32,000 nucleotides of DNA, taken from contig NZ_FRAD01000006.1 in assembly GCF_900142225.1 (NCBI RefSeq), positions 131,548 through 163,547 of the forward strand. Direction: 5' to 3'. Positions 4,663 to 21,760 of this stretch are shown piece by piece. A model generated the notes under the pieces. It saw only the letters and a program-made list of their open reading frames with translations. It was not told where the DNA came from and did no database searches. How positions within the stretch are numbered: the first letter of the stretch is position 1; every line of letters begins with the position of its first letter. The position numbers and the translations under genes are program-made. Origin of the DNA: Hathewaya proteolytica DSM 3090 (GTDB taxonomy: Bacteria; Bacillota; Clostridia; Clostridiales; Clostridiaceae).

Positions 4663-5400
4663 TTATATGGCCATGCCACCATCTACGCACAACACCTGAC
4701 CTGTTATATACTCAGAGCACTCTTCCGCAAAAAATGATACCGCCCTAGCCACATGATGTGCTTCACCTAATTTGTTTAGCGGAATTTGCTTTAAGATAGC
4801 ATCTTGTATATCCTCTTTTAAAATTGCTGTCATATCAGTCTTTATAAAACCAGGTGCCACCGCATTTACCGTTATATTTCTGCTAGCTAGCTCCTTAGCA
4901 GCTGACTTTGTCATGCCGATTATTCCAGCTTTACTAGCTGAATAATTAATTTGACCTGCATTACCTCTTACACCCACCACGCTGCTGATATTGATGATTC
5001 TGCCATATCTCTGTTTCATCATTATCCTACATACATTTTTAATGCACAAAAACGCTCCTTTAAGGTTGGTATCTATAACCTGGTCAAATTCCTCTTCTGA
5101 CATTCTCATAATCAAGTTATCCCTTGTGATTCCTGCATTATTCACAAGTACATCTATTCTTCCAAAATTCTCTACAACCGCGTCTATCATAGCTTTACAC
5201 TCAGTGTCTACACTTACATTGGCCTTTATAGCCATAGCTTTTACTCCAAATTCCTGGCACTGCTTTACAACTTCCATAGCCTTTTCTTCCCTAGAAGAAT
5301 AGTTTACAACTATATTGAAGCCCTTTCCCGCCAATTCAATGGCTACAGCTTTTCCAATACCTCTGCTTCCGCCAGTAACCACCGCTACTCTACTTTCCAT
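4663..5400 (-). CDS. fabG: 3-oxoacyl-ACP reductase FabG (SDR)
   Basis: TGGSRGIGKA cofactor motif, NNAGITRD, and YSASKAG catalytic motif. Overlaps the fabD stop by 11 nt. Confidence 0.93.
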   Translation of the reverse strand: MESRVAVVTGGSRGIGKAVAIELAGKGFNIVVNYSSREEKAMEVVKQCQEFGVKAMAIKANVSVDTECKAMIDAVVENFGRIDVLVNNAGITRDNLIMRMSEEEFDQVIDTNLKGAFLCIKNVCRIMMKQRYGRIINISSVVGVRGNAGQINYSASKAGIIGMTKSAAKELASRNITVNAVAPGFIKTDMTAILKEDIQDAILKQIPLNKLGEAHHVARAVSFFAEECSEYITGQVLCVDGGMAI

Positions 5401-6331
5401 TTATCTCACCCCACCTATCCTTTAAATCCTCAAAATCCTCGCAATTTTCCACAGCAAAGGTATTCACTGAAGGGTCTATTTTCTTTATAAACCCTGATAG
5501 AACCTTTCCCGGTCCTATTTCAATGATATTATCTATCCCACAGCCTATCATGTATCTTACACTATCTTCAAAATAGACACTGCTCTGTACTTGTCTTTCC
5601 AAAAGTTCCTTTATAGTTTCACCACTGCCTATTGTTCTACCAGTTACATTAAAAACAACAGGTATATTCATTTCTCTGAATTCCATGGATTTAAACTTCT
5701 CTGCAAGTTTATCTCCCGCTATTTTTAAAAGAGATGTGTGAAATGGTCCGCTTACATTCAATGGAATGCACCTTTTTGCCCCTTCACTCATACACATTTC
5801 GGAAGCTTTATCCACAGCCTCTGCTTCACCTGCTATTACTAGCTGCCCAGGGCAGTTATAATTTGCTATCTCCACTACGCCATAGCGGGAAGCTTCTCTA
5901 CATATTTGACGGAGTTTTTCTCTATCCAATTTAAGTACTGCCACCATTTTACTATGAAGGCCCATAACTGCATCTGCCATGGCATTGCCCCTAAAGGCTG
6001 CTAGTCTTACTGCCGTTTCACCCTTCATGGCCCCCGCTGCACTTAAAGCTGAATACTCTCCAAGACTTAGACCTGCCACCATGCTAGGAGTTATATTGCA
6101 AGATTTTAAAAGCTGTGTCATAGCATAAGCAAAAGCAACCATAGCGGGTTGTGTATTCCTGGTATCCGCCAATTCTGCTTCACTACCATGAAAACAAAGA
6201 TTTTTAAGTTTACCACCATCATAGTCCACACTATCAAAGGCGTTTTTGAAAGTCTCATACTTATTGTATAAATCACTACCCATGCCTTCCTTTTGACTTC
6301 CCTGACCTGCATATACAAATGCTGTTTTCAT
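5390..6331 (-). CDS. fabD: Malonyl-CoA:ACP transacylase FabD
   Basis: FVYAGQGSQ and GLSLGEYSAL (active-site Ser) motifs. I prefer the ATG at 6331 (MKTAF), 8 nt after GTGAGGA. The track start at 6337 sits too close to the SD. Confidence 0.92.
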   Translation of the reverse strand: MKTAFVYAGQGSQKEGMGSDLYNKYETFKNAFDSVDYDGGKLKNLCFHGSEAELADTRNTQPAMVAFAYAMTQLLKSCNITPSMVAGLSLGEYSALSAAGAMKGETAVRLAAFRGNAMADAVMGLHSKMVAVLKLDREKLRQICREASRYGVVEIANYNCPGQLVIAGEAEAVDKASEMCMSEGAKRCIPLNVSGPFHTSLLKIAGDKLAEKFKSMEFREMNIPVVFNVTGRTIGSGETIKELLERQVQSSVYFEDSVRYMIGCGIDNIIEIGPGKVLSGFIKKIDPSVNTFAVENCEDFEDLKDRWGEINGK

Positions 6332-6376
6332 ATTCATATCCTCACTTTTAACCTAAGCAAAATCATCTCATAATAC

Positions 6377-7450
6377 TTAATAATCATTGACCTTGCCCAT
6401 CAATTCATCTATGACATCATGAACTTTTACAATTTTGTCCATTTTATACCCTTCTGCACCTACAAAAAACAATCCTTCTTCATAGTTCCCATGTTGCGCT
6501 TCAATTAAGGCTTTAGTTATGCAATAAGGTGTAGTTGAAGGATTGCATGGAACAATACAATTGATGCATCTTTCATGTCTTATATTCTTTTCTTTCTCCA
6601 TCCGCTGTATAAGTGGAGTGTATAAGGCCCTCCCCGGCATGCCTACAGGACTTTGAACTATTCTAATGTCTTCTTTAGTTGCATTTATTACAATATCCTT
6701 GTATCCTTTAGAAGCATCACACTCTTCAGTGGCGATAAACCTTGTAGCAACCTGCACCGCATTTGCACCAAGATCAAGGTACTTTTTTACATCCTCATCA
6801 TAGCTTATTCCTCCAGCTACAACTATTGGAATGTATTTAGAATCCTCTCCTTGAAAAGAGTCCACCATTTCCCTTACTTCCTTATATATTTCCTCTAAAG
6901 ACTGTGATTTGTTGTCCAACAACTCCTCCCTTGAGAAGCCAAGATGTCCTCCAGCTTTACTTCCTTCCACCACAACAAAATCTGGTAGTCTATTGTATCT
7001 TCTCTTCCAAAGTTTACAGATAGTGTGAACCCCACGGGCACTAGAGATTATTGGTGCTATAAGAATATCAGCACCTGCTGTCATCTCTGGCAGTGACTTT
7101 GGAAGCCCTGCCCCTGAAATTATGCAATCAGCTCCAGCATCAATACAATCCCTCACCAAAAGTTCATAATCTTCCATGGCAACCATTATGTTAACACCTA
7201 TCATACCCCGACCACCTGAAAGCTTTTTTGCCTTTTTAATCTCCCGTTTAAGGGCCCTTGTATTAGCTTCCCTTGAATTTGTCCAGAAATCCTCTTCATC
7301 AAAGCCAGGATTAGCTGCTGAAATTACTCCCATACCACCGCAAGCCGCCACTGCACCTGCCAGGTTCCCAAGAGAAATACCGATTCCCATTCCTCCTTGG
7401 ACTATGGGAATTTGCAACTCTCTGTTTCCAATTTTCATCTTTTTATTCAT
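6377..7450 (-). CDS. FabK-like FMN enoyl-ACP reductase / nitronate monooxygenase-family paralogue with a C-terminal Cys cluster
   Basis: IPIVQGGMG near the N-terminus, EGSKAGGH and AGGI motifs of the NMO/FabK TIM-barrel family, plus CX2CX3CX7C (CINCIVPCNPSTTPYC) near the C-terminus. The ATG at 7450 overlaps the fabK stop (ATGAATAA). The ATG at 7438 is an alternative. The track start at 7501 is a TTG deep inside fabK. Confidence 0.8.
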   Translation of the reverse strand: MNKKMKIGNRELQIPIVQGGMGIGISLGNLAGAVAACGGMGVISAANPGFDEEDFWTNSREANTRALKREIKKAKKLSGGRGMIGVNIMVAMEDYELLVRDCIDAGADCIISGAGLPKSLPEMTAGADILIAPIISSARGVHTICKLWKRRYNRLPDFVVVEGSKAGGHLGFSREELLDNKSQSLEEIYKEVREMVDSFQGEDSKYIPIVVAGGISYDEDVKKYLDLGANAVQVATRFIATEECDASKGYKDIVINATKEDIRIVQSPVGMPGRALYTPLIQRMEKEKNIRHERCINCIVPCNPSTTPYCITKALIEAQHGNYEEGLFFVGAEGYKMDKIVKVHDVIDELMGKVNDY

Positions 7451-10136: not shown

Positions 10137-12389
10137 TCACATCTTCCTTTCATGCAATTTTAGCAACAATGACAAAACATGCTTAATTTTATTTCTAGGT
10201 ACAATATTGTCGATAAACCCATGTTCCTTAAGGTATTCCGCACTTTGGAACCCCTCTGGAAGCTTCTGTTTTAAGGTTTGCTCGATTACCCTAGGACCAG
10301 CAAAACCGATTAAGGCTTTTGGCTCTGCAATAATGATATCTCCAAGACTTCCAAAGCTGGCAGTTACTCCTCCTGTGGTAGGATTGGTGAGAACTGATAT
10401 ATATAGTAGACCAGCCTTTTTATGCTTTTCTAGTGCAGCAGAAGTCTTTGACATCTGCACCAGTGAGAAAATTCCCTCCTGCATTCTAGCTCCACCACTA
10501 GCGCAGAATATTATGATAGGCAACATATGTTTTGTAGAGTACTCAATTGCTAAGGTAATTTTTTCCCCCACAGCAGTACCCATGCTTCCCATCATAAATC
10601 TACTGTCTAACACAGCTACAACCACAGCTTCTCCACTTATTTTACCTACGCCTGTAACTACGCCCTCTTTAAGGCCAGTTTTTTCTTGAAGTTTTCTTAT
10701 CTTTTCATCATAATCTGGAAATTCCAAAGGATTGCTTCCAACAATGTCCTCATTGATCTCTCTAAAAGTGCCCTCATCGAGGACTAAACTTATTCTATAA
10801 TTTGCCGATATCTTAAAATGATAATCACATTCTGGGCAAACATACATAGAATCCAATAAAGATATCTCTGAAAAAGTTTTTCCACAGTGTGGACAATTTT
10901 CAAAAAGAGCACCTTCTATTTCCTTTTTTTCAATAGTTTTTGATTTATTTAATAGCTTTGCTTGGTATACAAGTTCAGCTTTTCTTCTTTTAAAAGGATC
11001 TTTAAATTCCTTTACGGCTTCAGCCGTTCTCTTATCTATCTCAAGTATATTATCTGCATTGTTTTCAATAAAACCAGTATTATAATTGCCCTTTAAAAAA
11101 TCAGGATGAAACATCAACAGATGCTGAAAAGATTGATTTGTTTCTATGCCTTCAATTAGAGTTTCCTCTAAGGCTCTTCTCATCCTCCTAATGGCATCCA
11201 GTCGATTATTTCCGTGAACAATCACCTTTGCAATCATAGAATCATAAAATGGATTTGTCTCGTACCCATTGTATATGGCACTATCTATCCTTACCCCATT
11301 GCCCTGTGAAAAATGCAAAAAGCTTATCTTTCCCGGACAGGGTTTGAAATTCTCCTTAGGATCTTCGGCATTTATTCTGCACTCAATGGCATGACCTCTA
11401 AACGTTACATTTTCCTGATTTATGTCCAGGGAAAGACCTGATGCGATTCTTATCTGTTGTTTCACAATATCTATCCCAGTAATCAACTCAGTGATAGGGT
11501 GTTCAACCTGTATCCTTGTATTCATCTCTATAAAATAAAAATTGTTATTTTCGTCTACTATAAATTCTATTGTACCTGCCGATTCGTAGCCCGATGCTAT
11601 CCCCGCTCTAACAGCGGCTTCACCCATTTCTCTTCTAAGCTCTTCAGTGAGACATTTCGCTGGAGCTTCTTCTACCATCTTTTGATTTCTTCTCTGCATA
11701 GAGCAATCTCTCTCTCCAAGGTGGATCACATTTCCGTGGCTGTCGGCTAGTATTTGGAACTCTATATGTTTAGGATTTATTATTAGCTTCTCAATGTACA
11801 TTTCACCATTGTTGAAGCAAGCTACCGCCTCTGCCCTTGCAGACATAAAGGCTTGAGCTATTTCTGCCTTTGAATTAACTCTCCTCATCCCTCTGCCTCC
11901 GCCCCCCGCTGAGGCTTTTATAAGCACAGGATATCCTATTTCTTCTGCTATCTTTTCTGCTTCCTCCACAGTATCCACGGTTCCCTCTGAACCCGGTACT
12001 ACTGGAACATTGTTTTCTTTCATCAGCTTTCGCGCCATGGATTTGTTGCCCATCTTATCCATTACGTCTCCACTAGGGCCTATAAACTTTACTCCTGATT
12101 TTTGGCACAGTCTAGCGAACTCGCTATTTTCAGATAAAAAACCGAAGCCTGGGTGTATGGCTTCACACCCAAGTTCCGTTGCCACAGTGAGTATGTTTTT
12201 CATATTTAAATAGCTATCCTTTGCCTTGGGTGGCCCTATACAAACTGCTTCAGTGGCAAACATAGAATGGAGTGCTGTTTTATCTGCTGTAGAGTATACA
12301 GCCACAGTATCAATCCCCATATCTCTGCACGCCCTGATTATTCTTATTGCAATTTCACCTCTATTGGCAATGAGTATCTTTTTAAACAT
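10137..12389 (-). CDS. accC/accD: Fused biotin carboxylase (AccC, residues about 1-450) and carboxyltransferase beta subunit (AccD, residues about 480-750)
   Basis: N-terminal [17 protein letters not shown], the ATP-grasp glycine loop ([10 protein letters not shown]) and [11 protein letters not shown] match AccC. After a roughly 40-aa Lys-rich linker comes the AccD zinc ribbon CPHC...CPEC, followed by GSMG and GGARMQEG motifs. One uninterrupted 750-codon frame. Its start overlaps the accB stop (ATGTTTAA). Confidence 0.88.
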
Positions 12390-13656: not shown

Positions 13657-14601
13657 CTACAGATTTATTTCCATGATCTTTTCTCCTGTAATATTGGGAT
13701 CAGTTCTAGAGTACATAAGGTAGCCATCCTTAAGTTCAAGTTTTATAACTCCAGCCTCATTAAGGTATTCAACATAGGATCGCACCATTCTTTGCATAAA
13801 ATTGTATTTGTAACTGTTTTTGATGGGTATATTGAACTTTTCTACTGCAGCCTTTAATATATCCTCTATAGTCATAGAACCTTTTATAACAGAGTACACC
13901 CCTCTTGCCCTGTCCTTATAAAACATAATATTGTCCTCAATGAGTTCATTTATATTATCATAAACACCTTTATGGGCTATTATATACATAGAGTTATGCA
14001 ACTTCTTAAGGCTATTCTTTGTCTTTAGATCTAAAGACAAAATATAAGCGTAGGGCATTTTTGCCCCCTTCATCACATCATAGCTGATAAGAGAATCACC
14101 TATATATGCTACATCGTCTGGTGTAATTATTCCTATTTGAGCTGGACTATGCCCCGGTAGGTGCAAAACATGAAATTTTACGTTAAACATGCTAATACAT
14201 TCATCACGATCAGAAACCATGATGTCCGTTTCAAAGACTGAATCCCTATAATATGTTTCCACCTCAGTGAGGGTTTGCATATTATAATACATCTTAAGAT
14301 TTGAAGAAGAACTGCAAATTAAAGCCTCATAAGCAGGCATAGCAATGATACAACCGTATTTTTCTTTAAAATATCCACAATTGCTAACATGGTCCATGTG
14401 AAAATGGCTACAAATTATACCTTTTATCCTTAATCCCTCTTTAAGCAGTGCTTCCTCTATACCTTCCCGTTCACCCTTAGCCCATCCAGCATCTAACATT
14501 ATAACTTTATCATCATCTATTTTATAAAAAGGAACATAGGTCATTCCTGTATCAATAAAAAATGTATTTCCCTTTGCATTAATAATGTCCGTAACGCCCA
14601 C
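13657..14601 (-). CDS. MBL-fold metallo-hydrolase with a C-terminal winged-helix-like extension
   Basis: HFHMDHVSN (HxHxDH zinc motif), then later HLPGHSP and AHKG. GTG start only 33 nt after the kinase stop, with no terminator between them. Confidence 0.8.
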   Translation of the reverse strand: MGVTDIINAKGNTFFIDTGMTYVPFYKIDDDKVIMLDAGWAKGEREGIEEALLKEGLRIKGIICSHFHMDHVSNCGYFKEKYGCIIAMPAYEALICSSSSNLKMYYNMQTLTEVETYYRDSVFETDIMVSDRDECISMFNVKFHVLHLPGHSPAQIGIITPDDVAYIGDSLISYDVMKGAKMPYAYILSLDLKTKNSLKKLHNSMYIIAHKGVYDNINELIEDNIMFYKDRARGVYSVIKGSMTIEDILKAAVEKFNIPIKNSYKYNFMQRMVRSYVEYLNEAGVIKLELKDGYLMYSRTDPNITGEKIMEINL

Positions 14602-14634: not shown

Positions 14635-15987
14635 TTAAACAATCTTTTTATCTATTTTTTCACTTATATTTGTTCTCATCCAAATTTCTGCTGTAAACAT
14701 ATCCTCGCTACACTCTAAGTTAAAGGTTATATTGTCGTACTCATTAACTATTTTCTTTAAATTGTATAACCCTATTCCTCTGCCGTTTTCCTTTGTAGAA
14801 TAGCCCTTTTGTGTCAACTTATAAATTTCATCCACTCTTTTAACACAACTATTTTGAACTACAAAAACCATACTATTATCTTTTTTTATAATACCAAAAT
14901 TAAGATTTTTATTTATCGTCTTTTGGGCCTCCTCTATGGCATTGTCTAAAAGAATTCCAAACACCCTCATGCAATCAATGTATTCCATGGGGATTTTGTC
15001 CACAGGCTCTGAAATGTCAATAAATAAATTGCATCCATTACTTTGCGCCTTCATGAGTTTAGATATTATTATAGATTTAAATGGTAAAATTTTTATATTT
15101 TTTAATTTTACAAAGAAATCATTTTTCTCCATGTAATGTTGTGTAGGCAATATACTCTCCCTAAAATATGTTTCCAAGCCATCATAATCTCCAGAATCAA
15201 TGTATCCTTCCATGGACATCAGTATATTTTTGTAATCATGCTTAAATTGCCTTATATTTGTATACAACTCTTCCATATACCCTGCATATTCTTCCATTCT
15301 TTGAATCTCTTCATTCTTCCTTTTTATTTCCATTTCCTTCACGGAATACTTGTTGTACATATTGGCGCTGAATACAGCAGATAAAATGGAAAAAAGAAAA
15401 ATCACAAGATTTATGAGATAGTTTTCATCAGCTTTTACTACCATCTTATTTATGATAAAAGATCCTATTATCATAACACCGCAAATAAAAATATTAGCAT
15501 AAACGTATATTAGCCTTACCTTATTTACTTTTTTGCTGTTATCATTAATTTTAGTTTTGCTAAAATCTTTGATGATTTTCCCAAATATATTGGAAAGAAT
15601 AAGTATACCAGCACAGGCACATAAAAAATAAATGGTCAGACTAACCCACCTGTAGTCTCTTAAAATACTCTTTCTAAGCACATTGGATATTAAATTGGAT
15701 ATAATGTCGCTTACTAAAAAAATAATTAAAGTAGATATACTATAAACAATATTGGGTATAATCTTCACAGTTTTATCGTGAAAATAATTATACAAAAATA
15801 GCACAATAGGAATAGAGCATAAATTTATAAATATATCTCTAAATATATACCCTATGATCCAAAAGCACACAAGAGTAATTAAAAGAACTGCGCCTTCCTT
15901 GAAGCTTATCTTCTTATCTTTTAAAATACAAAACCCCATTATTACAAATAAACATGTAACAAAAGAGGTAACTAATACTAATGGCAT
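14635..15987 (-). CDS. AgrC/ComD-type (HPK10) membrane sensor histidine kinase
   Basis: About 6 N-terminal TM helices. H-box RQFKHDYKNIL, N-box ILLDNAIEEA, G-box GRGIGLYNLKKIV (GHKL ATPase). SD AAGGGGGG. Confidence 0.88.
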   Translation of the reverse strand: MPLVLVTSFVTCLFVIMGFCILKDKKISFKEGAVLLITLVCFWIIGYIFRDIFINLCSIPIVLFLYNYFHDKTVKIIPNIVYSISTLIIFLVSDIISNLISNVLRKSILRDYRWVSLTIYFLCACAGILILSNIFGKIIKDFSKTKINDNSKKVNKVRLIYVYANIFICGVMIIGSFIINKMVVKADENYLINLVIFLFSILSAVFSANMYNKYSVKEMEIKRKNEEIQRMEEYAGYMEELYTNIRQFKHDYKNILMSMEGYIDSGDYDGLETYFRESILPTQHYMEKNDFFVKLKNIKILPFKSIIISKLMKAQSNGCNLFIDISEPVDKIPMEYIDCMRVFGILLDNAIEEAQKTINKNLNFGIIKKDNSMVFVVQNSCVKRVDEIYKLTQKGYSTKENGRGIGLYNLKKIVNEYDNITFNLECSEDMFTAEIWMRTNISEKIDKKIV

Positions 15988-16086
15988 GTTTTCCCCCCTT
16001 AATTTGTGTTTTACTTTATATTAATTTATCTAATAACATTATACTATAAACATAGCGTAATTCGGATATGTTTTTTCGCCAAATAG

Positions 16087-16118
16087 AAAAAAAGCGCTGC
16101 AAAATTCTACATTTTACA
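16087..16118 (-). terminator. Weak AU-rich hairpin plus U-run between the ABC-like gene and the kinase gene
   Basis: Minus-strand RNA UGUAAAAU-guaga-AUUUUGCA, then GCGC and UUUUUUU. The stem is short and AU-rich, so termination would be partial at best. Confidence 0.35.
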
Positions 16119-16153
16119 ACACTTTTCCCCTTAAACTTTCTATAAATATTCTC

Positions 16154-16597
16154 TTATTGTATATCTATATCATTGCATATAAATTTTAACTCCTCAATGT
16201 CCGATGAATACACAATAAAATTCTTTTTTTCTTGAGCGCTTATTTCATTTATCAAATTCTTAATCTCTATTCTACCTTGCTGGTCAAGTCCACATATTGG
16301 CTTAACTAATTCAATGGGGGATGTATCATTTAGCAACTTCTCCGCTATGTGAATCTTTACCATCATCTCTGGTGTATATTTAGATAACCGTGTTCTTTTG
16401 AATTTCTCAAGACCTACTATTTTTAATATATGCTCTATATCATAAGCTTTCTTACATTTTAGAAAACAAAATATTTTAAGATTGACATATGTGCTCAGGA
16501 ACCTAATAACAAATGGATACTTCCTATTCTCCATTCTATTCTTAACCTGTTTTCTGTCATTATATATGTAAACCCCTTTTATTATGCCTTGCTCCAC
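16154..16597 (-). CDS. Degenerate ABC-ATPase-like protein (C-terminal two thirds of a nucleotide-binding domain, no Walker A)
   Basis: Collinear with the ABC NBD template but decayed. The signature LSGGQ position reads LSKYTPEM. Walker B LILDEP reads IELVKP. The D-loop GLD is retained. The H-loop SSH reads SSD. No GxxGxGKS/T anywhere. GTG start 5 nt after ACGGAGGTG, overlapping the rSAM stop by 1 nt (TAGTG). Confidence 0.6.
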   Translation of the reverse strand: MEQGIIKGVYIYNDRKQVKNRMENRKYPFVIRFLSTYVNLKIFCFLKCKKAYDIEHILKIVGLEKFKRTRLSKYTPEMMVKIHIAEKLLNDTSPIELVKPICGLDQQGRIEIKNLINEISAQEKKNFIVYSSDIEELKFICNDIDIQ

Positions 16598-17979
16598 TAT
16601 TGCACCTCCGTATATTGCTGGCTACGTCTCATCTTTTTTACAAGTTCTACAATAACTTCTTCTGTAATCCGCTTATGCATCTCACAATTAACTTCACTTT
16701 GTCTATGAATATTTCCAGTTTCAAAATAATTAGATCCTATGCATCCATGACATATGGTATTATTAAAACAATTTTTGCAACGTTCATCGTTAAACTTGCT
16801 AAAATTTATAAGTTTCGTCTTTATTTCATTATATTTTTTCGATAAAAACAAATCATCTTCATAAATATTTCCCATTTTATACTCCTGTTGATCTATGAGC
16901 ATAAAGCAGGGATATACATCACCATTTACGGAAACTGATAGTAAAACCAAACCAGCCTCACATAAATACTTGCAAACTTGCTTTTTCTTCAAAATATTTA
17001 TAACGGTACTTATAAGATCATTAATGGGTATATCACCAGAATTTTCTCCCATGAGATCCGAAACCGATTTTACGAACTCATCTCTATTGGATAAAATAAA
17101 TTCATCATCTTCATTTCCCGAGACCGGAGTTATATGAAAATGTTCTATGCCAAATTCTTCCTTGCCGTATTTTATAATATCCTTTATCTTTACACCCATT
17201 TCTTCATGTACCCTATTATACGTGGACTCTATGCAGGATGGTTCCCCTGTGAATTTTCTTAAACGCATTATATTGTCCCCTACAACTCTTCCCGTTCCTT
17301 TTCCGTTTTTAAAAATCCTCATCTTGTCATTTACACTCTCCGGCCCATCCAGGCTAACAGTGACATGAATATTGTATTTTTTAATGATCTCTAACAACTT
17401 TTCGTCCATAACAGTTCCATTGCTAACCATGCCAAGCTTTGTTTTTTCTTTTTCTTCGTCCTTAAACTTTTCCTGTACATATTTACCAATAACCTCTATT
17501 CCCTGAGGATTTAAAGTGGGTTCCCCTCCAAAGATTTGTATGTTTTCTATATTATCATAATGTCCATAGAAAACATCCAAGGCTTTTATTATGGTATCTT
17601 CACTCATCATACATTCCTCTGAACAGTAGTTTCCTCCATTGGCATAACAATATTTACATGCAAGATTGCACACATTTGTGATGTTGATAACCAGTTTCTT
17701 TAGTATGTTTACTTCTTCTTTTCCGCTGTTAACTACCCCTTTGTCATTTTGTTTCTTATTATGACCCCATCCACAATTACAGTTTTCATCAATAACTTTT
17801 TTTAAAGATTCGTATGATTTATCGTCACAAGAAAATTGTTCCATAGTATGCTCTTTATTAATGCCTTCAATTATATCTTTCATTACATTCCTAGTCAGCT
17901 TATTTATCTCATAGAATCTAAGAGTATCAGGGAAAAAGGCCACTGTTATACCATCTTTTTCTACAAAATGTGGTTTCAA
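16597..17979 (-). CDS. Radical SAM / SPASM-domain peptide-modifying enzyme with an N-terminal RRE-like (PqqD-like) region
   Basis: CX3CX2C cluster in NITNVCNLACKYCYANGG. GGEPTL SAM-binding motif. C-terminal Cys-rich SPASM-type region (CKYLCEAG...VYPCFML...CKNCFNNTICHGCIGSNY...CEMH). The first ~70 aa (ITVAFFPDTLRFYEINKLTRNVMKDIIEG) resemble RiPP recognition elements. TTG start 5 nt after GGAGGGG. Confidence 0.88.
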   Translation of the reverse strand: MKPHFVEKDGITVAFFPDTLRFYEINKLTRNVMKDIIEGINKEHTMEQFSCDDKSYESLKKVIDENCNCGWGHNKKQNDKGVVNSGKEEVNILKKLVINITNVCNLACKYCYANGGNYCSEECMMSEDTIIKALDVFYGHYDNIENIQIFGGEPTLNPQGIEVIGKYVQEKFKDEEKEKTKLGMVSNGTVMDEKLLEIIKKYNIHVTVSLDGPESVNDKMRIFKNGKGTGRVVGDNIMRLRKFTGEPSCIESTYNRVHEEMGVKIKDIIKYGKEEFGIEHFHITPVSGNEDDEFILSNRDEFVKSVSDLMGENSGDIPINDLISTVINILKKKQVCKYLCEAGLVLLSVSVNGDVYPCFMLIDQQEYKMGNIYEDDLFLSKKYNEIKTKLINFSKFNDERCKNCFNNTICHGCIGSNYFETGNIHRQSEVNCEMHKRITEEVIVELVKKMRRSQQYTEVQ

Positions 17980-18044: not shown

Positions 18045-18182
18045 TTATATCTGACACATAATACCTAAGCAGACATTACCACACCAATTTCCGTCACGCC
18101 AACCTCCATCCTTTGACTCCTTCACTAGCTTGTCTACGTCTATTTCTACCATCATAATGTCATTTTCACGTTTCTTATCCAT
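18045..18182 (-). CDS. Unannotated 45-aa RiPP precursor peptide: MDKKRENDIMMVEIDVDKLVKESKDGGWRDGNWCGNVCLGIMCQI
   Basis: Hand-translated from the minus strand. SD AGGAGGTGG 7 nt before the ATG at 18182, TAA stop at 18045-18047. Charged leader ending in GG, hydrophobic C-terminal core with 3 Cys (CX3CX4C) and 2 Trp. Lies 65 nt upstream of the rSAM gene on the same strand. Confidence 0.75.
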   Translation of the reverse strand: MDKKRENDIMMVEIDVDKLVKESKDGGWRDGNWCGNVCLGIMCQI

Positions 18183-18228
18183 TATTTATCCACCTCCTAT
18201 ACTTTTTTTACAACAAAGTTATTGGTTT

Positions 18229-18296
18229 AAAATAAAAAAGACAACAGATGCATTATTCTCAACCATGCCTATCTTGAGAATACTGTATATGTTGCC
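18229..18296 (-). terminator. Long hairpin plus U-tract (intrinsic terminator/attenuator) in the leader between the LytTR-box promoter and the precursor gene
   Basis: Minus-strand RNA: GGCAACA-uauacag-UAUUCUCAA-(11-nt loop)-UUGAGAAUA-augcauc-UGUUGUC, followed directly by UUUUUUAUUUU. The inner stem is 9 perfect bp and the outer stem is 7 bp. Confidence 0.55.
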
Positions 18297-18358
18297 TTAA
18301 TTTTATCACAATATTTTACTTTATTTTCAATATTATCTTCAAATGTGCTTGTTATATC

Positions 18359-18419
18359 ACAAACGTTTAAATTATATATTTTCACATATCCTAAACGTAG
18401 TTTTTATATCCTAAACGTA
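18359..18419 (-). promoter_or_regulatory. LytTR-type direct repeats plus a -10 box (activator-dependent promoter of the precursor/rSAM operon)
   Basis: Minus strand: tTACGTTTAGgatataaaaacTACGTTTAGgatatgtgaaaataTATAATttaAACGTTTGTg. TACGTTTAG occurs at 18411-18419 and 18391-18399 (20-bp period; the extended 14-nt repeat is TACGTTTAGGATAT). Both copies fit the AgrA-type consensus [TA][AC][CA]GTTN[AG][TG]. TATAAT at 18371-18376 lies 14 nt after the proximal repeat, with no -35 hexamer. A third consensus-fitting site AACGTTTGT is at 18359-18367. Confidence 0.7.
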
Positions 18420-18420
18420 A

Positions 18421-19146
18421 TTACTTTTTCAGACCAGTCAAGCATCTAAAAGAAACAAAACACTGTTCGCCATTTTTCATCATTAAAATCCTTCTTTTTT
18501 TATCCACCTCTATAATATTATTTTTATTCACTATGTAGGCTCTGTGTGATCTATAAAAGTTTTCCGGTAAATTTTCCTCAAACTCTCGCAAAGTCCCGTA
18601 AATCTCAAAAATCCTGTTTTTCTCGTGAACTACAAGCTTATGTGGTGACTGTGATGTTTCAATGAACATAACCTCATCCAACATAATTTTGATTTTTCTA
18701 CCCTCTTGCTCTAACAAAAGCACATTTTCTTTTTTCTCTGTCTTTTCAAAATTATCATTAATGTAAGATAAGGTTTTCTGTAGATTGGCTCGTACATTGT
18801 TAAAATTATCCTTAATAATATAATCAATGGCCTCAACTTTGTATTTAAACGTAAGGAAACTCATTTCGGAATGAGTAGTTAAAAAAATAATATAGCCAAG
18901 AGCATCCCTCTCCCTTATAAGACTGGCAAGCTGAAGTCCATTCACACTGTTGTTTAAATCTATATCCAGAATGTATATCCCCCTACGTACATTGTTTTCC
19001 TCTATGTATTCCAGTACTTGGTCCGGAGTTCTCGCACTGAGTTTTAACTGAAAGTCAAATTCCCATTGTCCTATTAGATCACTTACAATCTTCTCTATTT
19101 TACTGCATTGAATAGAACTGTCTTCACATATTATAACTGAAAGCAT
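18421..19146 (-). CDS. LytTR-family response regulator (AgrA/ComE-like)
   Basis: N-terminal receiver domain (VIICEDSS...IYILDIDL phospho-acceptor Asp context). C-terminal LytTR domain (VMFIETSQSPHKLVVHEKNRIFEIYGTLREFEENLPENFYRSHRAYIVN). The ATG at 19146 has no adjacent SD. Confidence 0.88.
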   Translation of the reverse strand: MLSVIICEDSSIQCSKIEKIVSDLIGQWEFDFQLKLSARTPDQVLEYIEENNVRRGIYILDIDLNNSVNGLQLASLIRERDALGYIIFLTTHSEMSFLTFKYKVEAIDYIIKDNFNNVRANLQKTLSYINDNFEKTEKKENVLLLEQEGRKIKIMLDEVMFIETSQSPHKLVVHEKNRIFEIYGTLREFEENLPENFYRSHRAYIVNKNNIIEVDKKRRILMMKNGEQCFVSFRCLTGLKK

Positions 19147-19363: not shown

Positions 19364-19741
19364 CTATTTTTTTTTATCATCCATTTCATCTAGCATATTT
19401 CTCAATTCTGTTAAATCCTCTTCTCCTATAGCATTGCCATCGTATAAAGATGTAACAAAGCGACTTAGAGAATTTCCAAACATCTTTTTGAAAATGGATT
19501 TTCCTTCTTCCTGAAGATACTTATCCTCATCCACCAAAGGAGAATAATAATTGATTTTACCTTGCTTTTCTTTCTTTATAAATCCTTTATCCTCCAGTCT
19601 AGATAAAAATGATAATACTGTATTGGGTAGGATATCTCTGCTTTTATCTAGCTTAGCTTCTATATCCATTCTTGTAACAGGGCCCTGTGAGTGCCATATT
19701 ATCATCATCAGCTCTAACTCAGAGTCAGGTAACTTCTTCAT
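19364..19741 (-). CDS. BlaI/MecI/CopY-family winged-helix repressor (no cognate BlaR1-type sensor gene adjacent)
   Basis: N-terminus LPDSELELMMIIWHSQGPVTRMDIEAKL...PNTVLSFLSRLEDKGFIKKEKQGKINYYSPLV is the penicillinase-repressor wHTH pattern. Start moved to the ATG at 19741, which follows GGAGGAGGG. Confidence 0.8.
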   Translation of the reverse strand: MKKLPDSELELMMIIWHSQGPVTRMDIEAKLDKSRDILPNTVLSFLSRLEDKGFIKKEKQGKINYYSPLVDEDKYLQEEGKSIFKKMFGNSLSRFVTSLYDGNAIGEEDLTELRNMLDEMDDKKK

Positions 19742-19776
19742 GTACTTCCCTCCTCCTTCAATATTCATTAGACGTT

Positions 19777-19846
19777 TGCCTAACTATATTAACAGTATAT
19801 TGCTTTTTATTTATTATGTCAACAATTATTTTAGGCACATGCCTAA
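19777..19846 (-). promoter_or_regulatory. Promoter of the BlaI-family gene flanked by a TTAGGCA/TGCCTAA dyad and an extra half-site
   Basis: Minus strand: TTAGGCAtgTGCCTAA (19831-19846), then TTGACA (19817-19822), 17-nt spacer, TATACT (19794-19799), then a further TTAGGCA half-site (19777-19783). The 2-nt spacer rules out an RNA hairpin, so a protein-binding dyad is more likely. Confidence 0.5.
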
Positions 19847-21141
19847 TTATACCACCCATTCCACACTTTCAGGTCAGAAAGGTATTGTTCCTCTACTGCA
19901 GGAACATAAAAAACTCCATAAGTATTTAAACCCTTATCCTCTTTCATTGTAGGAATTTCCACATAAATTTTGTAATAGGGCATATAATTTATATCCTTGC
20001 CATTTCTGTATACAAGCTCTGTCTTGCGTATATACTGTTCTCCTGGAAACTTTTCAGGTACTGTAGAGATGTATTTACCTTTGCAAAGGAGTTCCTCAGC
20101 TTTTTCCTTTGTAATAATAGGGTAGTACCCTAGTTTCTCGGAAAGATCAGGTTTATCAATGGTCATGCCAGAGAAATCACCATTTTCATTGTATATAATG
20201 GATATTATATTAAAATTATAGTTTATGATTTTGTCTATATCATTTTCTTTATCATTGTAAAAGTTAAAATTGAACCCACCTAGCTCACCATCATAGGTAT
20301 AATTTCCACCATGTATGTTTGCTTTAGGATTTTTCATAGGAATTATCTTATTGTAAGTATTTTTTATATAATCTTGAGATTTAAGGTGTTTTTCGTAACT
20401 TTCTTGTTTATTACCTCTTATTTTATATTCCTCTGGCAGTTCAAAAGGCTTAACAAATTCTATAGTGGTTTCCACATGGCAATCTACACTTATATTGTAC
20501 TTATCAGATGAAATGGTAGCACTTTTCAGTATATTATAGTCAAGTTCATTAAATTCAATTCCCACTTCTGAATCCCTCTCAACCTTAGAATTTATTTCTT
20601 CTTTATTTGGATGAATTTCTACAGGGTATTTTTCAGTGTCAATACCTAAAAATTCTGCTACTTCATAGGCACGTTTTTTTATGGGTTCTATATCAACCTT
20701 TATGGGCCTTCCGACTTCATCGTAGGAAAGCTTACTTTTAAACACCGGCAACCTAGTGATGTTCATGGATTCATTCCACGGATTCCCGTTTTTTAATTCA
20801 CTAATATCATAGGCCATATAACCCTCATAACCCATACCATCCGTAGAAAAACTACTGAATAAACACAATTTTTCTAGTTGGCCATTTTGATTTTGTTCAT
20901 GGGCTTTATCATCATTATAATCCACTTGAAAACTGTATTTATTACCTTGGTATTTGGGTTTTATTCTAGATTTTAAATAAATTCCTGTACCAACTACAGC
21001 ACACATAATAACAGAAGCCGCCACCACTCCGTATCTTTTCCATGGAATACTATGCTTCATTACAAGATTCTCTTCCTCTGCTTCATTTATGATATCCTCA
21101 CTTAGCATTCCCATGATTTGAAATATCCTTTCCCTCTTCAT
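19843..21141 (-). CDS. Membrane-anchored protein coupled to the sigma factor (putative anti-sigma factor with a large extracytoplasmic domain)
   Basis: About 35 cytoplasmic residues (MKRERIFQIMGMLSEDIINEAEE), one TM segment (YGVVAASVIMCAVVGTGIYL), then about 370 extracytoplasmic residues with no motif I recognise. Its ATG overlaps the sigma gene stop (ATGA). The anti-sigma call rests on position and topology only. Confidence 0.5.
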   Translation of the reverse strand: MKRERIFQIMGMLSEDIINEAEEENLVMKHSIPWKRYGVVAASVIMCAVVGTGIYLKSRIKPKYQGNKYSFQVDYNDDKAHEQNQNGQLEKLCLFSSFSTDGMGYEGYMAYDISELKNGNPWNESMNITRLPVFKSKLSYDEVGRPIKVDIEPIKKRAYEVAEFLGIDTEKYPVEIHPNKEEINSKVERDSEVGIEFNELDYNILKSATISSDKYNISVDCHVETTIEFVKPFELPEEYKIRGNKQESYEKHLKSQDYIKNTYNKIIPMKNPKANIHGGNYTYDGELGGFNFNFYNDKENDIDKIINYNFNIISIIYNENGDFSGMTIDKPDLSEKLGYYPIITKEKAEELLCKGKYISTVPEKFPGEQYIRKTELVYRNGKDINYMPYYKIYVEIPTMKEDKGLNTYGVFYVPAVEEQYLSDLKVWNGWYN

Positions 21142-21698
21142 ATATACACATCCTCCTTCTTCAAAAACACCTTAAGGGCTTTTCTTGTACGAAATAGAGA
21201 TGATAAAACGTTGCTTTTTGAAAGGCTGTATCTTTTTTGGATATCCTCTACACTATCACAATACCAGTACCGTCTAACAAAAATAAGTCTATTATGTTGC
21301 GACTGTTTTCCTAAAAACTCATCTATTAACCTGGCAATTTCTTTTTCCTCTATGCTGCTTTCCACATCATTACTAGAAGGTATACACTGTTCCATCTCTG
21401 TTAATATAAACTCCATGTCACCATTGCCACGTTTTTTTGCTTTTTGTTTTTTATACATATCAAAGGATAAATGCCGTGTAATGCATCCAAGAAAACTTCG
21501 CATAGAATTAGGCCTCTCCTCTGGTATAGAGTTCCATGTGCGGAGATAAGTATCATTAATGCACTCCTGTGAATCTTCATTATCCTTTAAGATATTCATT
21601 GCTATTTTACAAAGATAATTTCCATACTTATTATCCGTTTCAGTTATGGCTTCCTCACACCTCTGCCAGTACAGTTCAACGATTTCTGAATCCTCCAT
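21138..21698 (-). CDS. ECF-type sigma-70 family RNA polymerase sigma factor
   Basis: Region 2-like (IVELYWQRCEEAI...DTYLRTWNSIP) and region 4-like HTH (RLIFVRRYWYCDSVEDIQKRYSLSKSNVLSSLFRTRKALKVFL). Start moved to the ATG at 21698, which follows AAAGGGGTG. Confidence 0.8.
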   Translation of the reverse strand: MEDSEIVELYWQRCEEAITETDNKYGNYLCKIAMNILKDNEDSQECINDTYLRTWNSIPEERPNSMRSFLGCITRHLSFDMYKKQKAKKRGNGDMEFILTEMEQCIPSSNDVESSIEEKEIARLIDEFLGKQSQHNRLIFVRRYWYCDSVEDIQKRYSLSKSNVLSSLFRTRKALKVFLKKEDVYI

Positions 21699-21760
21699 GA
21701 TATCACCCCTTTTCCCTTTCACCTATAAAGACGAATTTTTCAGTAGAAAATTGCATATTA

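Follow-up and report, generated by a model that had tools for sequence, protein, structure and literature searches.

Peptides modified by radical-SAM (rSAM) enzymes form a known and fast-growing class, and several described systems resemble the locus considered here, which lies within a 32,000-nucleotide stretch of the Hathewaya proteolytica DSM 3090 genome (hereafter, the window). The SCIFF peptides (ranthipeptides) and their maturase CteB, of the ScfB family (PDB 5WGG/5WHY), share with it a precursor of ~45 amino acids encoded directly upstream of an RRE-rSAM-SPASM enzyme, and their minimal clusters, like that of the window, contain neither a protease nor a transporter. A role in clostridial quorum sensing has been proposed for SCIFF and rSAM thioether peptides (Chen 2020, via PMC8102284). 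However, SCIFF peptides contain six Cys and are recognized by model TIGR03973, whereas the window peptide contains three, is not matched by any Pfam or NCBIfam model and carries a different leader motif. A dedicated Agr-like two-component system and promoter boxes further set the window cluster apart from those of SCIFF peptides.

The type 2 unnested sactipeptides provide a second point of comparison. Streptosactin has rings between Cys25 and Ser28 and between Cys31 and Gly34, and QmpB makes similar rings (PMC9389541, PMC8172795). These products of GggB (streptosactin) and QmpB (QmpA) thus feature sequential rings of ~4 residues with Gly as a possible acceptor, which is also the type of ring predicted here. 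The polarity is opposite, in that the streptosactin acceptor is found at +3 of the Cys (PMC8172795) and the Gly of the window family at -3. Regulation by quorum sensing is a shared trait of these RiPP clusters, exerted through Rgg/SHP for streptosactin and Qmp and, in the present case, probably through a LytTR two-component system. The C-x3-D/E motif of PapB-type (freyrasin-like) peptides is absent from the window core, as no Asp or Glu occupies the +4 position of any of its Cys. The epeXEPAB (yydFGHIJ) operon of Bacillus subtilis, with the gene order peptide, rSAM enzyme, M50 protease and ABC transporter, matches the arrangement of one group of relatives described below (PMC10885120). The window differs from epipeptide loci in the absence of a protease and transporter, an enzyme that is not EpeE-like and a core rich in Cys and Gly.

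With respect to regulation, the agr locus (AgrBDCA) likewise pairs an AgrC-type kinase and an AgrA-type regulator with a small peptide gene and a modifying enzyme, and has paired direct repeats upstream of its peptide operon. Its AgrB/AgrD pair generates a thiolactone, whereas the window encodes neither protein but a radical-SAM enzyme, and its regulator and kinase score under the equivalog cutoffs. The Sil, Blp and Pln loci (LytTR/HPK10) also carry two 10-bp repeats with a spacer of ~11 bp upstream of their operons, as do the window and its close relatives; they produce unmodified peptides with double-glycine leaders and C39 exporters, in contrast to the window family, which has no conserved Gly-Gly or C39 protein.

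Against this background, we consider it probable, if not secure, that the window encodes an auto-regulated and probably thioether-cross-linked RiPP, produced from a 45-aa precursor by a CteB-like maturase. Given the Agr-like sensor and regulator to which the gene is wired in this lineage, the product is probably a peptide that induces its own production, for signalling or for killing, and one of a kind that has yet to be studied.

The precursor peptide and its family

The precursor gene occupies positions 18045..18182 of the minus strand and encodes 45 amino acids from an ATG start (MDKKRENDIMMVEIDVDKLVKESKDGGWRDGNWCGNVCLGIMCQI). A Shine-Dalgarno sequence, AGGAGGTGG (18190..18198, minus strand), is situated 7 nt before the ATG, and the stop codon is separated by 65 nt from the TTG start of the rSAM gene at 17979. 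An acidic leader extends to approximately residue 27 and is followed by the core, ...G31-N-W-C34-G35-N-V-C38-L-G40-I-M-C43-Q-I, which is composed of three G-x-x-C units. Its Cys34, Cys38 and Cys43 form a CX3CX4C pattern, and Trp28 and Trp33 are also present. An earlier note on this DNA had reported the minus-strand frame, the spacing of its ribosome-binding site, the 65-nt gap and the Cys pattern, all of which are borne out by the sequence; the ORF is not hidden, as had been thought, since the public record holds it as hypothetical protein SAMN02745248_00922 of H. proteolytica DSM 3090.

Small ORFs of the same family are found directly upstream of the enzyme gene at 13 of 15 independent loci, counted among the enzyme relatives that could be placed on a contig. 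Each of the 13 loci has between one and five such ORFs, often as 2-5 tandem copies that have diverged from one another. A profile built from 61 family peptides, excluding the window peptide and its nearest relatives so that the comparison is not circular, ranks the precursor ORF first among 828 stop-to-stop segments from all six frames of the window (E=4e-4, with leader and core both aligned), and the second-best segment reaches only E=0.3. It could be argued that the frame is open by chance and is never translated, as the window is AT-rich and 12 kb of it contain 82 ORFs of at least 30 aa. This is very improbable in view of the strong Shine-Dalgarno sequence at optimal spacing, the retention of position and family across genera and the profile ranking, and the comparative evidence effectively refutes it. 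The 45-codon ORF is, on these comparative grounds, a genuine gene encoding the predicted substrate of the adjoining rSAM enzyme. The retention of the small ORF at syntenic loci, together with conservation of the family, supports the original proposal of a precursor for the adjacent rSAM/SPASM enzyme in a sactipeptide- or ranthipeptide-like class.

Profile searches place the family at 24 clusters at 90% identity and about 49 at 50%, all annotated as 'hypothetical'. Gly precedes 192 of 196 core Cys at position -3 across the family, and in an alignment of 22 sequences G31, C34, G40 and C43 are invariant while G35 and C38 are conserved in at least 90%. An aromatic residue (W/F) is common at -4, both of the first Cys (32 of 63 peptides) and of the last (39 of 63), although in the window peptide the -4 positions are occupied by Asp and Leu, not by aromatics. 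Of the Cys and Trp positions, whose conservation beside rSAM homologues had been put forward as a check, the Cys are conserved and the double Trp is not. In some family peptides the middle Cys is swapped for Trp, and in one relative (L002) the sole upstream candidate ORF is Cys-less, so that Cys-directed chemistry may not hold for the enzyme family as a whole.

The leader had been described as helix-prone and ending in Gly-Gly. Its alternating hydrophobic and acidic residues (VEIDVDKLV) instead appear to form a β-strand, as would be expected for RRE binding, and the Gly-Gly end is found only in the window peptide, its relatives having ...LEETxTP... or SG/TG at this point. Moreover, no C39 double-glycine protease or transporter is found among the ABC proteins of all clusters. 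A double-glycine leader was accordingly rejected as a family trait. What the family does conserve, as judged from its alignment, is the acidic, β-strand-like leader and the G-x-x-C units. Neither Pfam nor NCBIfam contains a model that matches the window peptide (NCBIfam, E<=1) or ten of its relatives (E<=10), which agrees with the earlier impression that the core belongs to no named family and indicates that the precursor is not a SCIFF peptide. By sequence, then, this is a small, unnamed and conserved peptide family with cores built from G-x-x-C units.

The rSAM/SPASM maturase

The maturase gene (16597..17979, minus strand) begins with TTG and encodes 460 aa with Pfam Radical_SAM and SPASM domains. 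An RRE spans residues 4-67, the rSAM CX3CX2C motif is formed by C104, C108 and C111, and the seven Cys of the SPASM region are C340, C358, C401, C404, C410, C413 and C432; the CX3CX2C and SPASM Cys are invariant in 36 homologues. In the AlphaFold model (pLDDT 90.4 overall), the N-terminus, at 92-96, adopts the β3-α3 topology of an RRE, which sustains the suggestion that this region resembles a leader-binding domain. CteB (5WHY/5WGG) is the best match by both Foldseek and phmmer, with a full-length TM of 0.74-0.80, while the structural similarity to the epimerase EpeE is weak (TMq 0.35-0.36). The residues close to the catalytic site, Y112, F150, V185, S209, F359 and M360, correspond to F, F, T, S, H and Q in CteB.

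The maturase reaches no NCBIfam cutoff. Its best score is to PapB (NF047865; 172 vs 340 bits), and it also stays below the cutoffs of the ScfB equivalog (TIGR03974; 154.6 vs 425 bits), GggB (NF050038; 118.7 vs 650 bits), CcpM / CLI_3235 Cys-rich (115.8 vs 500 bits), CefB (76.9 vs 600 bits), CXXX-repeat (75.2 vs 350 bits) and lachnocin (65.1 vs 550 bits) models. Known thioether formers, namely PapB, the SCIFF maturase, QhpD, GggB and CcpM, account for five of the top seven NCBIfam matches. As in the sactipeptide class, an enzyme with RRE and SPASM domains is paired with a Cys-containing core, and the invariant Gly(-3) is suggestive only of sulfur-to-α-carbon bonds in the product.

RNA folding finds no attenuator between the precursor and rSAM genes; the spacer is unstructured (z +1.1), which fits co-transcription of the two genes. 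Downstream, a 21-bp terminator-like hairpin (16085..16131, minus strand; -24.8 kcal/mol, z -4.1, with none of 200 shuffles as good) is the probable 3' end of a transcription unit composed of the peptide gene, the rSAM gene and the ATPase fragment discussed below.

The two-component system and its candidate sites

The earlier note overlooked both an AgrA/AgrC-like system flanking the peptide and maturase genes and the repeats immediately upstream of the peptide. The AgrA-like response regulator (18421..19146, minus strand; 241 aa) combines receiver and LytTR domains (Pfam LytTR 7.4e-21, Response_reg 7.9e-11) and falls below the NCBIfam AgrA cutoff (NF046049; 179.7 vs 400 bits). The AgrC-like sensor histidine kinase (14635..15987, minus strand; 450 aa) has a polytopic N-terminal sensor and a GHKL domain (HATPase_c_5 5.5e-17), and is likewise below the AgrC cutoff (NF046015; 178.5 vs 500 bits). 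Regulator orthologues with 48-63% identity adjoin every close rSAM relative, and kinase orthologues with 43-45% identity adjoin the cluster in L081, L083, L084, L089, L090 and L091. Together, the pair adjoins all seven enzyme relatives of at least 45% identity that could be placed on contigs, whereas relatives at or below 43% identity are without it. Ranked by identity, the loci come in the same order whether the regulator, the kinase or the rSAM enzyme is compared, as would fit a module inherited as a unit. It is thus strongly supported by these gene neighborhoods that in the subclade of the window the cluster always travels with an AgrA/AgrC-like pair. AgrB and AgrD are absent from the scanned ORFs of the window and from the called genes of related loci, and the remaining window ORFs (fab/acc, cysK, metG and similar) were recognized from their translations. 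No other small peptide gene is found in the clusters.

The candidate site for the LytTR regulator is a pair of direct repeats, TACGTTTAGGATAT (18386..18419, minus strand), with 10-bp cores at 18409-18418 and 18389-18398 and a start-to-start distance of 20 bp. It begins 2 nt past the stop codon of the regulator gene and ~205 nt ahead of the ATG of the peptide gene. The exact ACGTTTAGGA box occurs only twice in the 32-kb window, both times in this pair, and pairs of it at 21 bp precede cluster genes in L081, L084 (twice), L089, L090 and L091. In L084 and L090, boxes precede the peptide/rSAM genes and also an ABC transporter operon. Across the loci with a two-component system (91.7 kb), seven box pairs are observed against 0.2 expected, a number reached in none of 200 shuffles, and each of the seven lies in the promoter region of a cluster gene; where the system is missing, the loci have one pair against 0.26 expected, located inside an rSAM coding region. 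Published LytTR sites consist of a pair of imperfect 9-10-bp direct repeats, separated by 11-12 bp of AT-rich spacer, upstream of the regulated gene (PMC2766830), and the putative boxes share this geometry. The spacing of 20 bp in the window differs from the 21 bp of all relatives, and exact repeat spacing was found to matter for SilA (PMC2766830).

Downstream of the second box are two candidate -10 elements (18351..18376, minus strand), TATAAT at 18371-18376 and TGATATAAC at 18351-18359, the latter overlapped by a degenerate third box, ACGTTTGTGA, at 18357-18366. L081 and L089 have comparable -10-like elements, 27-32 nt past their second box. Between the boxes and the Shine-Dalgarno sequence of the peptide gene lies a long imperfect hairpin with a U-run (18226..18312, minus strand), and the fold of the surrounding region (18183-18330, minus strand) has an energy of -28.3 kcal/mol (z -2.2), matched by 5 of 200 shuffled sequences. 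This element may act as a terminator for the regulator gene, as an attenuator or as both. Its position is a point against the reading favoured here, as it could end transcription before the peptide gene. A search of Rfam with the 5' leader returned no known riboswitch, only generic hairpin matches below threshold.

The ATPase fragment and cluster architectures

Overlapping the rSAM stop codon by 1 nt is a degenerate ABC-ATPase fragment of 147 aa (16154..16597, minus strand), identified by profile and homologue alignment. The fragment corresponds to approximately residues 63-204 of the ABC ATPase in the C. pasteurianum cluster and to positions 78-195 of 223 in profile TIGR03740; it lacks the Walker A motif and has mutations in both the signature and the Walker B motif. 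Although it has no Pfam match, its best NCBIfam match is 'lantibiotic protection ABC transporter'. The ORF is kept in L081, L089, L083 and L092 with 29 invariant columns and identities of 28-51%, and its interpretation as a fresh pseudogene was rejected on this basis. The MBL-fold gene at 13657-14601 was rejected as a part of the module owing to its absence from related loci.

Three architectures can be distinguished. Type-A relatives contain one or more peptide genes, the rSAM enzyme, an M50 membrane protease and an ABC-2 transporter, and type-B relatives contain a fused ABC exporter. Type C, to which the window belongs, is a module of five genes encoding the regulator, kinase, precursor, rSAM enzyme and dead ATPase fragment, and is present in the window, L081, L089 and L083/L092, four lineages independent of one another. 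Every ORF is intact in these lineages despite enzyme identities of only 49-58% and ATPase-fragment identities down to 28%, which argues for selection and not decay. No exporter or leader protease is found in the flanks examined for the window and L083. A genome scan with generic rSAM motif patterns returned 80 loci, 7 of which are true family members, and metagenome scans with the window enzyme and with the alignment of the ATPase fragment returned no further relatives.

Proposed pathway and alternative interpretations

In the proposed pathway, the acidic, β-strand-like leader would dock at the RRE of the maturase, whose three [4Fe-4S] clusters would support abstraction of hydrogen atoms from the core and the linking of every Cys sulfur to a carbon atom in a residue close by. 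Small, sequential (unnested) thioether rings would be the most likely outcome, at most three in the window peptide, with the invariant Gly(-3) serving either as the Cα acceptor or as a turn that presents the residue at -4. The leader would then be removed and a hydrophobic product of ~16-18 residues exported. As the M50 protease and ABC-2 transporter of relatives are missing from the window, these last steps would depend on functions encoded outside the cluster. Outside the cell, the polytopic AgrC-like kinase would sense the product and phosphorylate the LytTR regulator, which, bound at the paired boxes, would increase transcription of the peptide-rSAM operon and so close a loop of self-induction. 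Where relatives retain the protease and the putative immunity transporter, this type of peptide is probably also a membrane-active bacteriocin. The assignment of the peptide as the kinase ligand is drawn from the adjacency of the genes and from the lack of a competing candidate. A more specific proposal, which we advance tentatively, is that in the Hathewaya-type module the cross-linked G-x-x-C peptide acts as the autoinducer of the AgrC-like kinase, with a radical-SAM thioether replacing the AgrB/AgrD thiolactone chemistry, and that this arrangement arose from a bacteriocin cluster that was reduced by losing its M50 protease and ABC-2 immunity transporter. The multi-copy precursors and 'lantibiotic protection'-type ABC-2 transporters of relatives fit a bacteriocin better than a pheromone.

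It is a distinct possibility, although short of probable, that the product is primarily a membrane-active, sactibiotic-like bacteriocin, that the two-component system only times its production, and that the Hathewaya cluster is a reduced and possibly decaying version from which the protease and the immunity/export transporter have been lost. The type-A gene set is that of the antimicrobial epipeptide operon, in which the M50 protease EpeP cleaves and exports the product (PMC10885120); a fused exporter in type-B relatives, the diverged tandem precursors, the NCBIfam profile that best matches the ABC fragment and the frequent control of bacteriocin loci by LytTR systems (PMC2766830) all point the same way, as does the retention of just a dead ATPase fragment in the window. 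However, the reduced five-gene layout recurs intact in four lineages, and making a toxin would be costly for a cell whose cluster has neither immunity nor export genes. This interpretation agrees with the favoured one on the status of the precursor and its regulation, and differs only on the role of the product. Rather less likely is that the kinase senses something else, for example another peptide, stress at the membrane or a host-derived cue, and that the RiPP is a regulated output. The kinase gene of the window is set apart from that of the regulator, past a terminator-like hairpin, and some bacteriocin loci of the Pln/Blp/Sil type have a separate inducing peptide (PMC2766830), but the compact type-C loci contain no second leader-like small ORF and the shared order of regulator, kinase and enzyme identities fits a single co-inherited module.

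The chemistry itself could also differ from that proposed, with the enzyme installing another radical modification, for example an epimerization of the epipeptide type or a C-C or C-O cross-link involving the aromatic residue at -4, and the Cys serving as disulfides, metal ligands or hydrogen-atom donors. One SPASM clade can perform different reactions (PMC10288494), and the frequency of W/F at -4, the replacement of the middle Cys by Trp, the Cys-less candidate substrate in L002 and the resemblance of type-A operons to an epimerase-based system are all compatible with such a modification. We nonetheless regard it as unlikely, since the enzyme is closest in fold and sequence to thioether formers of the CteB, PapB and QhpD type and only weakly similar to EpeE, and the only invariant residues of the core are Cys and Gly(-3), not the aromatics.

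Relation to described families and significance

Literature searches with the core sequences gave one irrelevant match, and searches of the literature on rSAM enzymes with LytTR regulators and precursors, on ranthipeptide quorum sensing and on sactipeptides with AgrA/AgrC uncovered no account of the family. Three uncharacterized clusters in PMC9389541 were considered as possible members and proved to be different. Six new sactipeptide groups are predicted by Precord et al. (2023). Barring a match to one of these groups, the G-x-x-C family and its Agr-type wiring are new, within an otherwise known class of rSAM-modified peptides. The antiSMASH rule for ranthipeptides depends on the SCIFF model TIGR03973 (table in PMC13289728), and standard ranthipeptide mining probably misses the family because this model does not match the window peptide.

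The precursor family has no Pfam or NCBIfam model. Its near-absolute G-x-x-C rule amounts to a sharp and testable prediction of ring topology, and its clade-specific coupling to an Agr-type system with recognizable boxes offers a ready-made reporter assay. Should the peptide be the ligand of the kinase, radical-SAM thioether chemistry would be tied directly to two-component peptide signalling in clostridia, a connection that has so far been suggested only indirectly, for SCIFF peptides. If true, the Hathewaya module would also be an example of a bacteriocin cluster pared down to a signalling module.

The precursor peptide and its family

The ORF at 18045-18182 (minus strand) comprises 45 codons and encodes MDKKRENDIMMVEIDVDKLVKESKDGGWRDGNWCGNVCLGIMCQI. 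A Shine-Dalgarno sequence, AGGAGGTGG (18190-18198, minus strand), is followed by the ATG 7 nt further on, and 65 nt separate the stop codon from the TTG start of a 460-aa gene with Radical_SAM and SPASM domains, as read from the sequence and a domain scan. The core contains three Cys residues arranged as CX3CX4C, along with two Trp residues. The earlier note had given the position, length, ribosome-binding site, gap and residue pattern correctly, as re-reading of the sequence confirmed, but its description of the gene as hidden does not hold: the public record of Hathewaya proteolytica DSM 3090 already contains it under the name hypothetical protein SAMN02745248_00922, beside the enzyme, SAMN02745248_00921.

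Homology searches returned about 100 full-length homologues of the enzyme (31-58% identity), hosted by Clostridia, Ruminococcus, Lachnospiraceae, Enterococcus, Bacillus and Paenibacillus. Contig placement of 17 of them gave 15 independent loci (numbered with the prefix L), and at 13 of these one to five similar small ORFs occur immediately upstream of the enzyme. Examples include MEQKDQNKIMMIEFDMEGSNIASINGVGTMEELSGNWCGGGCYGIYCY at L081, MDIRQEEICLVEFDVETLVDENKDEASALGTGWVCGDGCWGLLC at L083 (7786-7920, uncalled in the record) and MEFKMNEVRVEEIEILEETEAPAFGIICGGGCWGIGCAF, present in several copies, at L001. The two exceptions are L007, on a contig with just 240 nt upstream of the enzyme, and L002, from an Anaeromicropila MAG, where the sole candidate upstream of the rSAM homologue (39% identity) is the Cys-less MRECEKIELTNIIIPTLPTGSDIILSGLW (5820-5927); L002 either employs a different substrate chemistry or has its precursor elsewhere. 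At L091, the rSAM call (5005-6456, 483 aa) is over-extended at its 5' end and masks a 40-aa precursor in another frame (4947-5069; MENQEIVLNEVNTNELDIISEKSTASWGFGCEGGFGILCW).

In profile searches, the precursor family comprises 24 clusters when grouped at 90% identity and 49 when grouped at 50%. All members are unnamed or "hypothetical" and no curated model in Pfam or NCBIfam covers them, in keeping with the earlier note, which matched the core to no named family. An HMM search, also proposed there, used a profile trained on 61 family peptides with the window peptide and its closest relatives left out. Among 828 six-frame segments of the window, this profile ranked the ORF first (E=4e-4; runner-up 0.3), with an alignment covering both leader and core. 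A chance reading frame is excluded, and the status of the ORF as a precursor gene is strongly supported.

The leader alternates hydrophobic and acidic residues, with the consensus h-x-E-h-x-h-[DE][DE]-h-[DE]-x-L-E-E-[TS]-x-[TA]-P, to which IMMVEIDVDKLVKESKDGG corresponds in the window peptide. In the core, the precursor alignment shows G31, C34, G40 and C43 to be invariant, and G35 and C38 to be at least 90% conserved. The double Trp and the Gly-Gly stressed at the outset are peculiar to the window peptide among its relatives. Of the 196 core Cys residues in 63 full-length precursors, 192 have Gly at exactly -3, and position -4 is often aromatic (W/F); because of these two regularities, the repeat unit is defined as [aromatic]-G-x-x-C. 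The window peptide carries three such units, G-N-W-C, G-N-V-C and G-I-M-C, with Asp at -4 of the first and Leu at -4 of the last. The middle Cys is dispensable, since Clostridium pasteurianum and others carry Trp in its place (L086, 6732-6881; precursor relatives P0163, P0177 and P0178; for example, GFGCPHGWFGAYCN). Judged from sequence, the constant part of the precursors is the outer two G-x-x-C units.

The rSAM/SPASM enzyme

An AlphaFold model of the enzyme, built from 36 homologues (mean pLDDT 90.4), begins with three strands and three helices (residues 4-67) in the topology of a PqqD-like RRE, the leader-binding domain that had been suspected at this N-terminus. A disordered linker (residues 69-88) leads to the radical-SAM barrel and SPASM domain. 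The CX3CX2C motif (C104, C108, C111) and seven SPASM Cys residues are invariant in the homologue alignment. The top PDB match, both by sequence (E=3.8e-31) and by fold over the whole length (TM 0.74-0.80), is CteB, the thioether-forming maturase of SCIFF (six-Cys-in-forty-five) peptides, and a CteB-like, RRE-containing maturase is strongly supported. The top NCBIfam matches are PapB, SCIFF maturase, nif11 maturase, ScfB-related orphan, QhpD, GggB and CcpM, five of these seven being thioether formers; no curated NCBIfam cutoff was reached, the closest score being 172 of 340 bits. The enzyme represents a new branch in the neighbourhood of the thioether formers.

Cluster architectures

The loci fall into three types in local tblastn searches with reference proteins. 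Type A (L001, L084/85, L086 of C. pasteurianum and L090) combines one or more peptides and the rSAM enzyme with a membrane metalloprotease of the M50 family (~400 aa) and with an ABC ATPase plus ABC-2 permeases; L005 and L007 hold its rSAM-M50 portion, to which L007 adds the ATPase. M50 proteins exceed the Pfam threshold (31.6 and 38.2 bits versus 27.2). Type A shares its gene order with the epipeptide operon of Bacillus subtilis, where cleavage and export of the peptide are the task of the M50 protease EpeP (PMC10885120). Type B (L003, L004, L006 and L087 of B. cereus) has peptides, the rSAM enzyme and a 588-aa ABC protein. Type C (the window, L081/82, L089 and L083/92) comprises an AgrA-like regulator, an AgrC-like kinase, one peptide, the rSAM enzyme and an ATPase fragment of ~145 aa. 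L084 and L090 unite type A genes with the two-component system, and at L091 this system is divergently transcribed, with a MacB-like ABC pair close by. The L084 kinase is split into two ORFs (5531-6846; 151 and 287 aa), which could be due to either a frameshift or misassembly.

In the window, the fragment is a 147-aa ORF (16154-16597, minus strand) representing the middle part of an ABC ATPase. The type C fragment aligns to residues ~63-204 of the type A ATPase; Walker A is missing and the signature and Walker B motifs are mutated, LSGGQ being replaced by SKYTPEM and the Walker B DE by VK in the window ORF. Four independent lineages nevertheless retain the fragment as an intact ORF 3' of the rSAM gene (51%, 51% and 28% identity; 29 invariant columns); either selection preserves a relic here or the domain has been neofunctionalised. 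The flanks of the window cluster and of L083, a complete genome, contain no exporter or protease.

Several neighbouring genes were also noted. The MBL-fold hydrolase directly 3' of the kinase (13657-14601, minus strand) weakly resembles the AHL lactonase AiiA (E 0.023); it was not found in related clusters and is therefore probably not a module member. Just upstream of the regulator (19364-21722, minus strand), what looks like a sigma/regulator unit of its own comprises genes for a BlaI/CopY-type repressor, a sigma-70 region-2 protein and a 432-aa protein without a family match. A 750-aa ORF in the fatty-acid synthesis operon (10137-12389, minus strand) appears to fuse a biotin carboxylase (AccC-like N-terminus) to a carboxyltransferase beta subunit (AccD-like Zn-ribbon, CPHCGK...CPECDYH), and a transposase-like ORF (30990-32000, plus strand) continues past the window end.

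Probable Agr-like regulation

The window cluster is bounded by the AgrA-like LytTR regulator (18421-19146, minus strand) and the AgrC-like kinase (14635-15987, minus strand), both clear homologues of the staphylococcal proteins that score under equivalog cutoffs. Pfam and NCBIfam scans of the scanned window ORFs and the genes of related clusters found no AgrB, AgrD or C39 domain. An orthologous pair adjoins the enzyme in all seven placed relatives of at least 45% identity, and the identity ranking across loci is the same for regulator, kinase and enzyme; placed relatives at or below 43% lack the pair, L001 having only a distant LytTR pair on the opposite strand. Linkage at the level of the module is strongly supported.

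TACGTTTAGGATAT is present in two exact copies at a distance of 20 bp, starting 2 nt past the regulator stop codon, and their 10-bp core has no further copy in the 32-kb window. Pairs of this core at 21 bp lie 129-135 nt upstream of peptide genes at L089 and L081, between the divergent operons at L091 and, at L084, ahead of the third peptide gene. Others precede the ABC-2 transporter operon at L084 (2135-2165) and L090 (175-205; a slightly weaker pair precedes the rSAM gene), which places the transporter in the predicted regulon of the peptide. Loci with the two-component system (91.7 kb) hold seven pairs against 0.2 expected, a number reached in none of 200 shuffles, versus one against 0.26 expected, inside a coding region, in loci without it (131.6 kb). 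In published LytTR sites, a 12-bp spacer separates 9-bp repeats or, for SilA, an AT-rich spacer of 11 bp separates 10-bp repeats (PMC2766830), a geometry that the boxes match. Given the pairing, enrichment and geometry, the regulator very probably drives the peptide-rSAM operon, with the boxes as candidate sites.

The peptide-rSAM spacer is unstructured in RNA folding (z +1.1), consistent with co-transcription. A 21-bp hairpin between fragment and kinase gene (16085-16131, minus strand; -24.8 kcal/mol, z -4.1), overlooked by a simple terminator scan owing to its AT-rich stem, probably ends the peptide-rSAM-fragment unit; the kinase would then require its own promoter or read-through. Between boxes and Shine-Dalgarno sequence lies a long imperfect hairpin with a U-run (~18226-18312, minus strand; z -2.2), in which Rfam recognised no family. 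It could terminate the regulator transcript, attenuate the induced promoter or mark where a short RNA driven from the boxes ends. Together with the box spacing of 20 rather than 21 bp, it calls for caution regarding expression of the window copy.

Proposed mechanism and role

Since SPASM clades can be polyfunctional (PMC10288494), the reaction proposed here is an inference. The leader would dock on the RRE as a beta-strand, and the enzyme would join each Cys sulfur to a nearby carbon, generating small sequential rings. The obvious candidate for the acceptor is the invariant Gly at -3, which would give a sactionine in a four-residue ring; the Cys31-Gly34 ring of streptosactin is alike in size and linkage, but opposite in polarity to the proposed G(-3)...C ring. 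Alternatively, this Gly may form a turn presenting the -4 residue. The product would then be exported and sensed by the kinase, inducing its own operon.

Type A and type B relatives look like bacteriocin clusters, given their multi-copy precursors, protease and putative immunity/export transporter; the type C module may be a derivative that serves signalling alone, or else a bacteriocin cluster that has been reduced. Among rSAM thioether peptides, those of the SCIFF type have been suggested to take part in quorum sensing in clostridia (Chen 2020, as cited in PMC8102284). The antiSMASH ranthipeptide rule depends on the SCIFF model TIGR03973 (as tabulated in PMC13289728), which does not match the window peptide. 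The class itself, an rSAM/SPASM RiPP with an RRE, is already known. The precursor family, the G-x-x-C rule, the enzyme branch and the clade-specific Agr-type wiring with its boxes were undescribed in the literature searched, a comparison lying outside the six uncharacterised predicted sactipeptide groups in the supplement of Precord et al. (2023). Unsurprising in kind, the system does provide a candidate peptide signal made by a radical-SAM enzyme, one that is compact and unusually open to testing.
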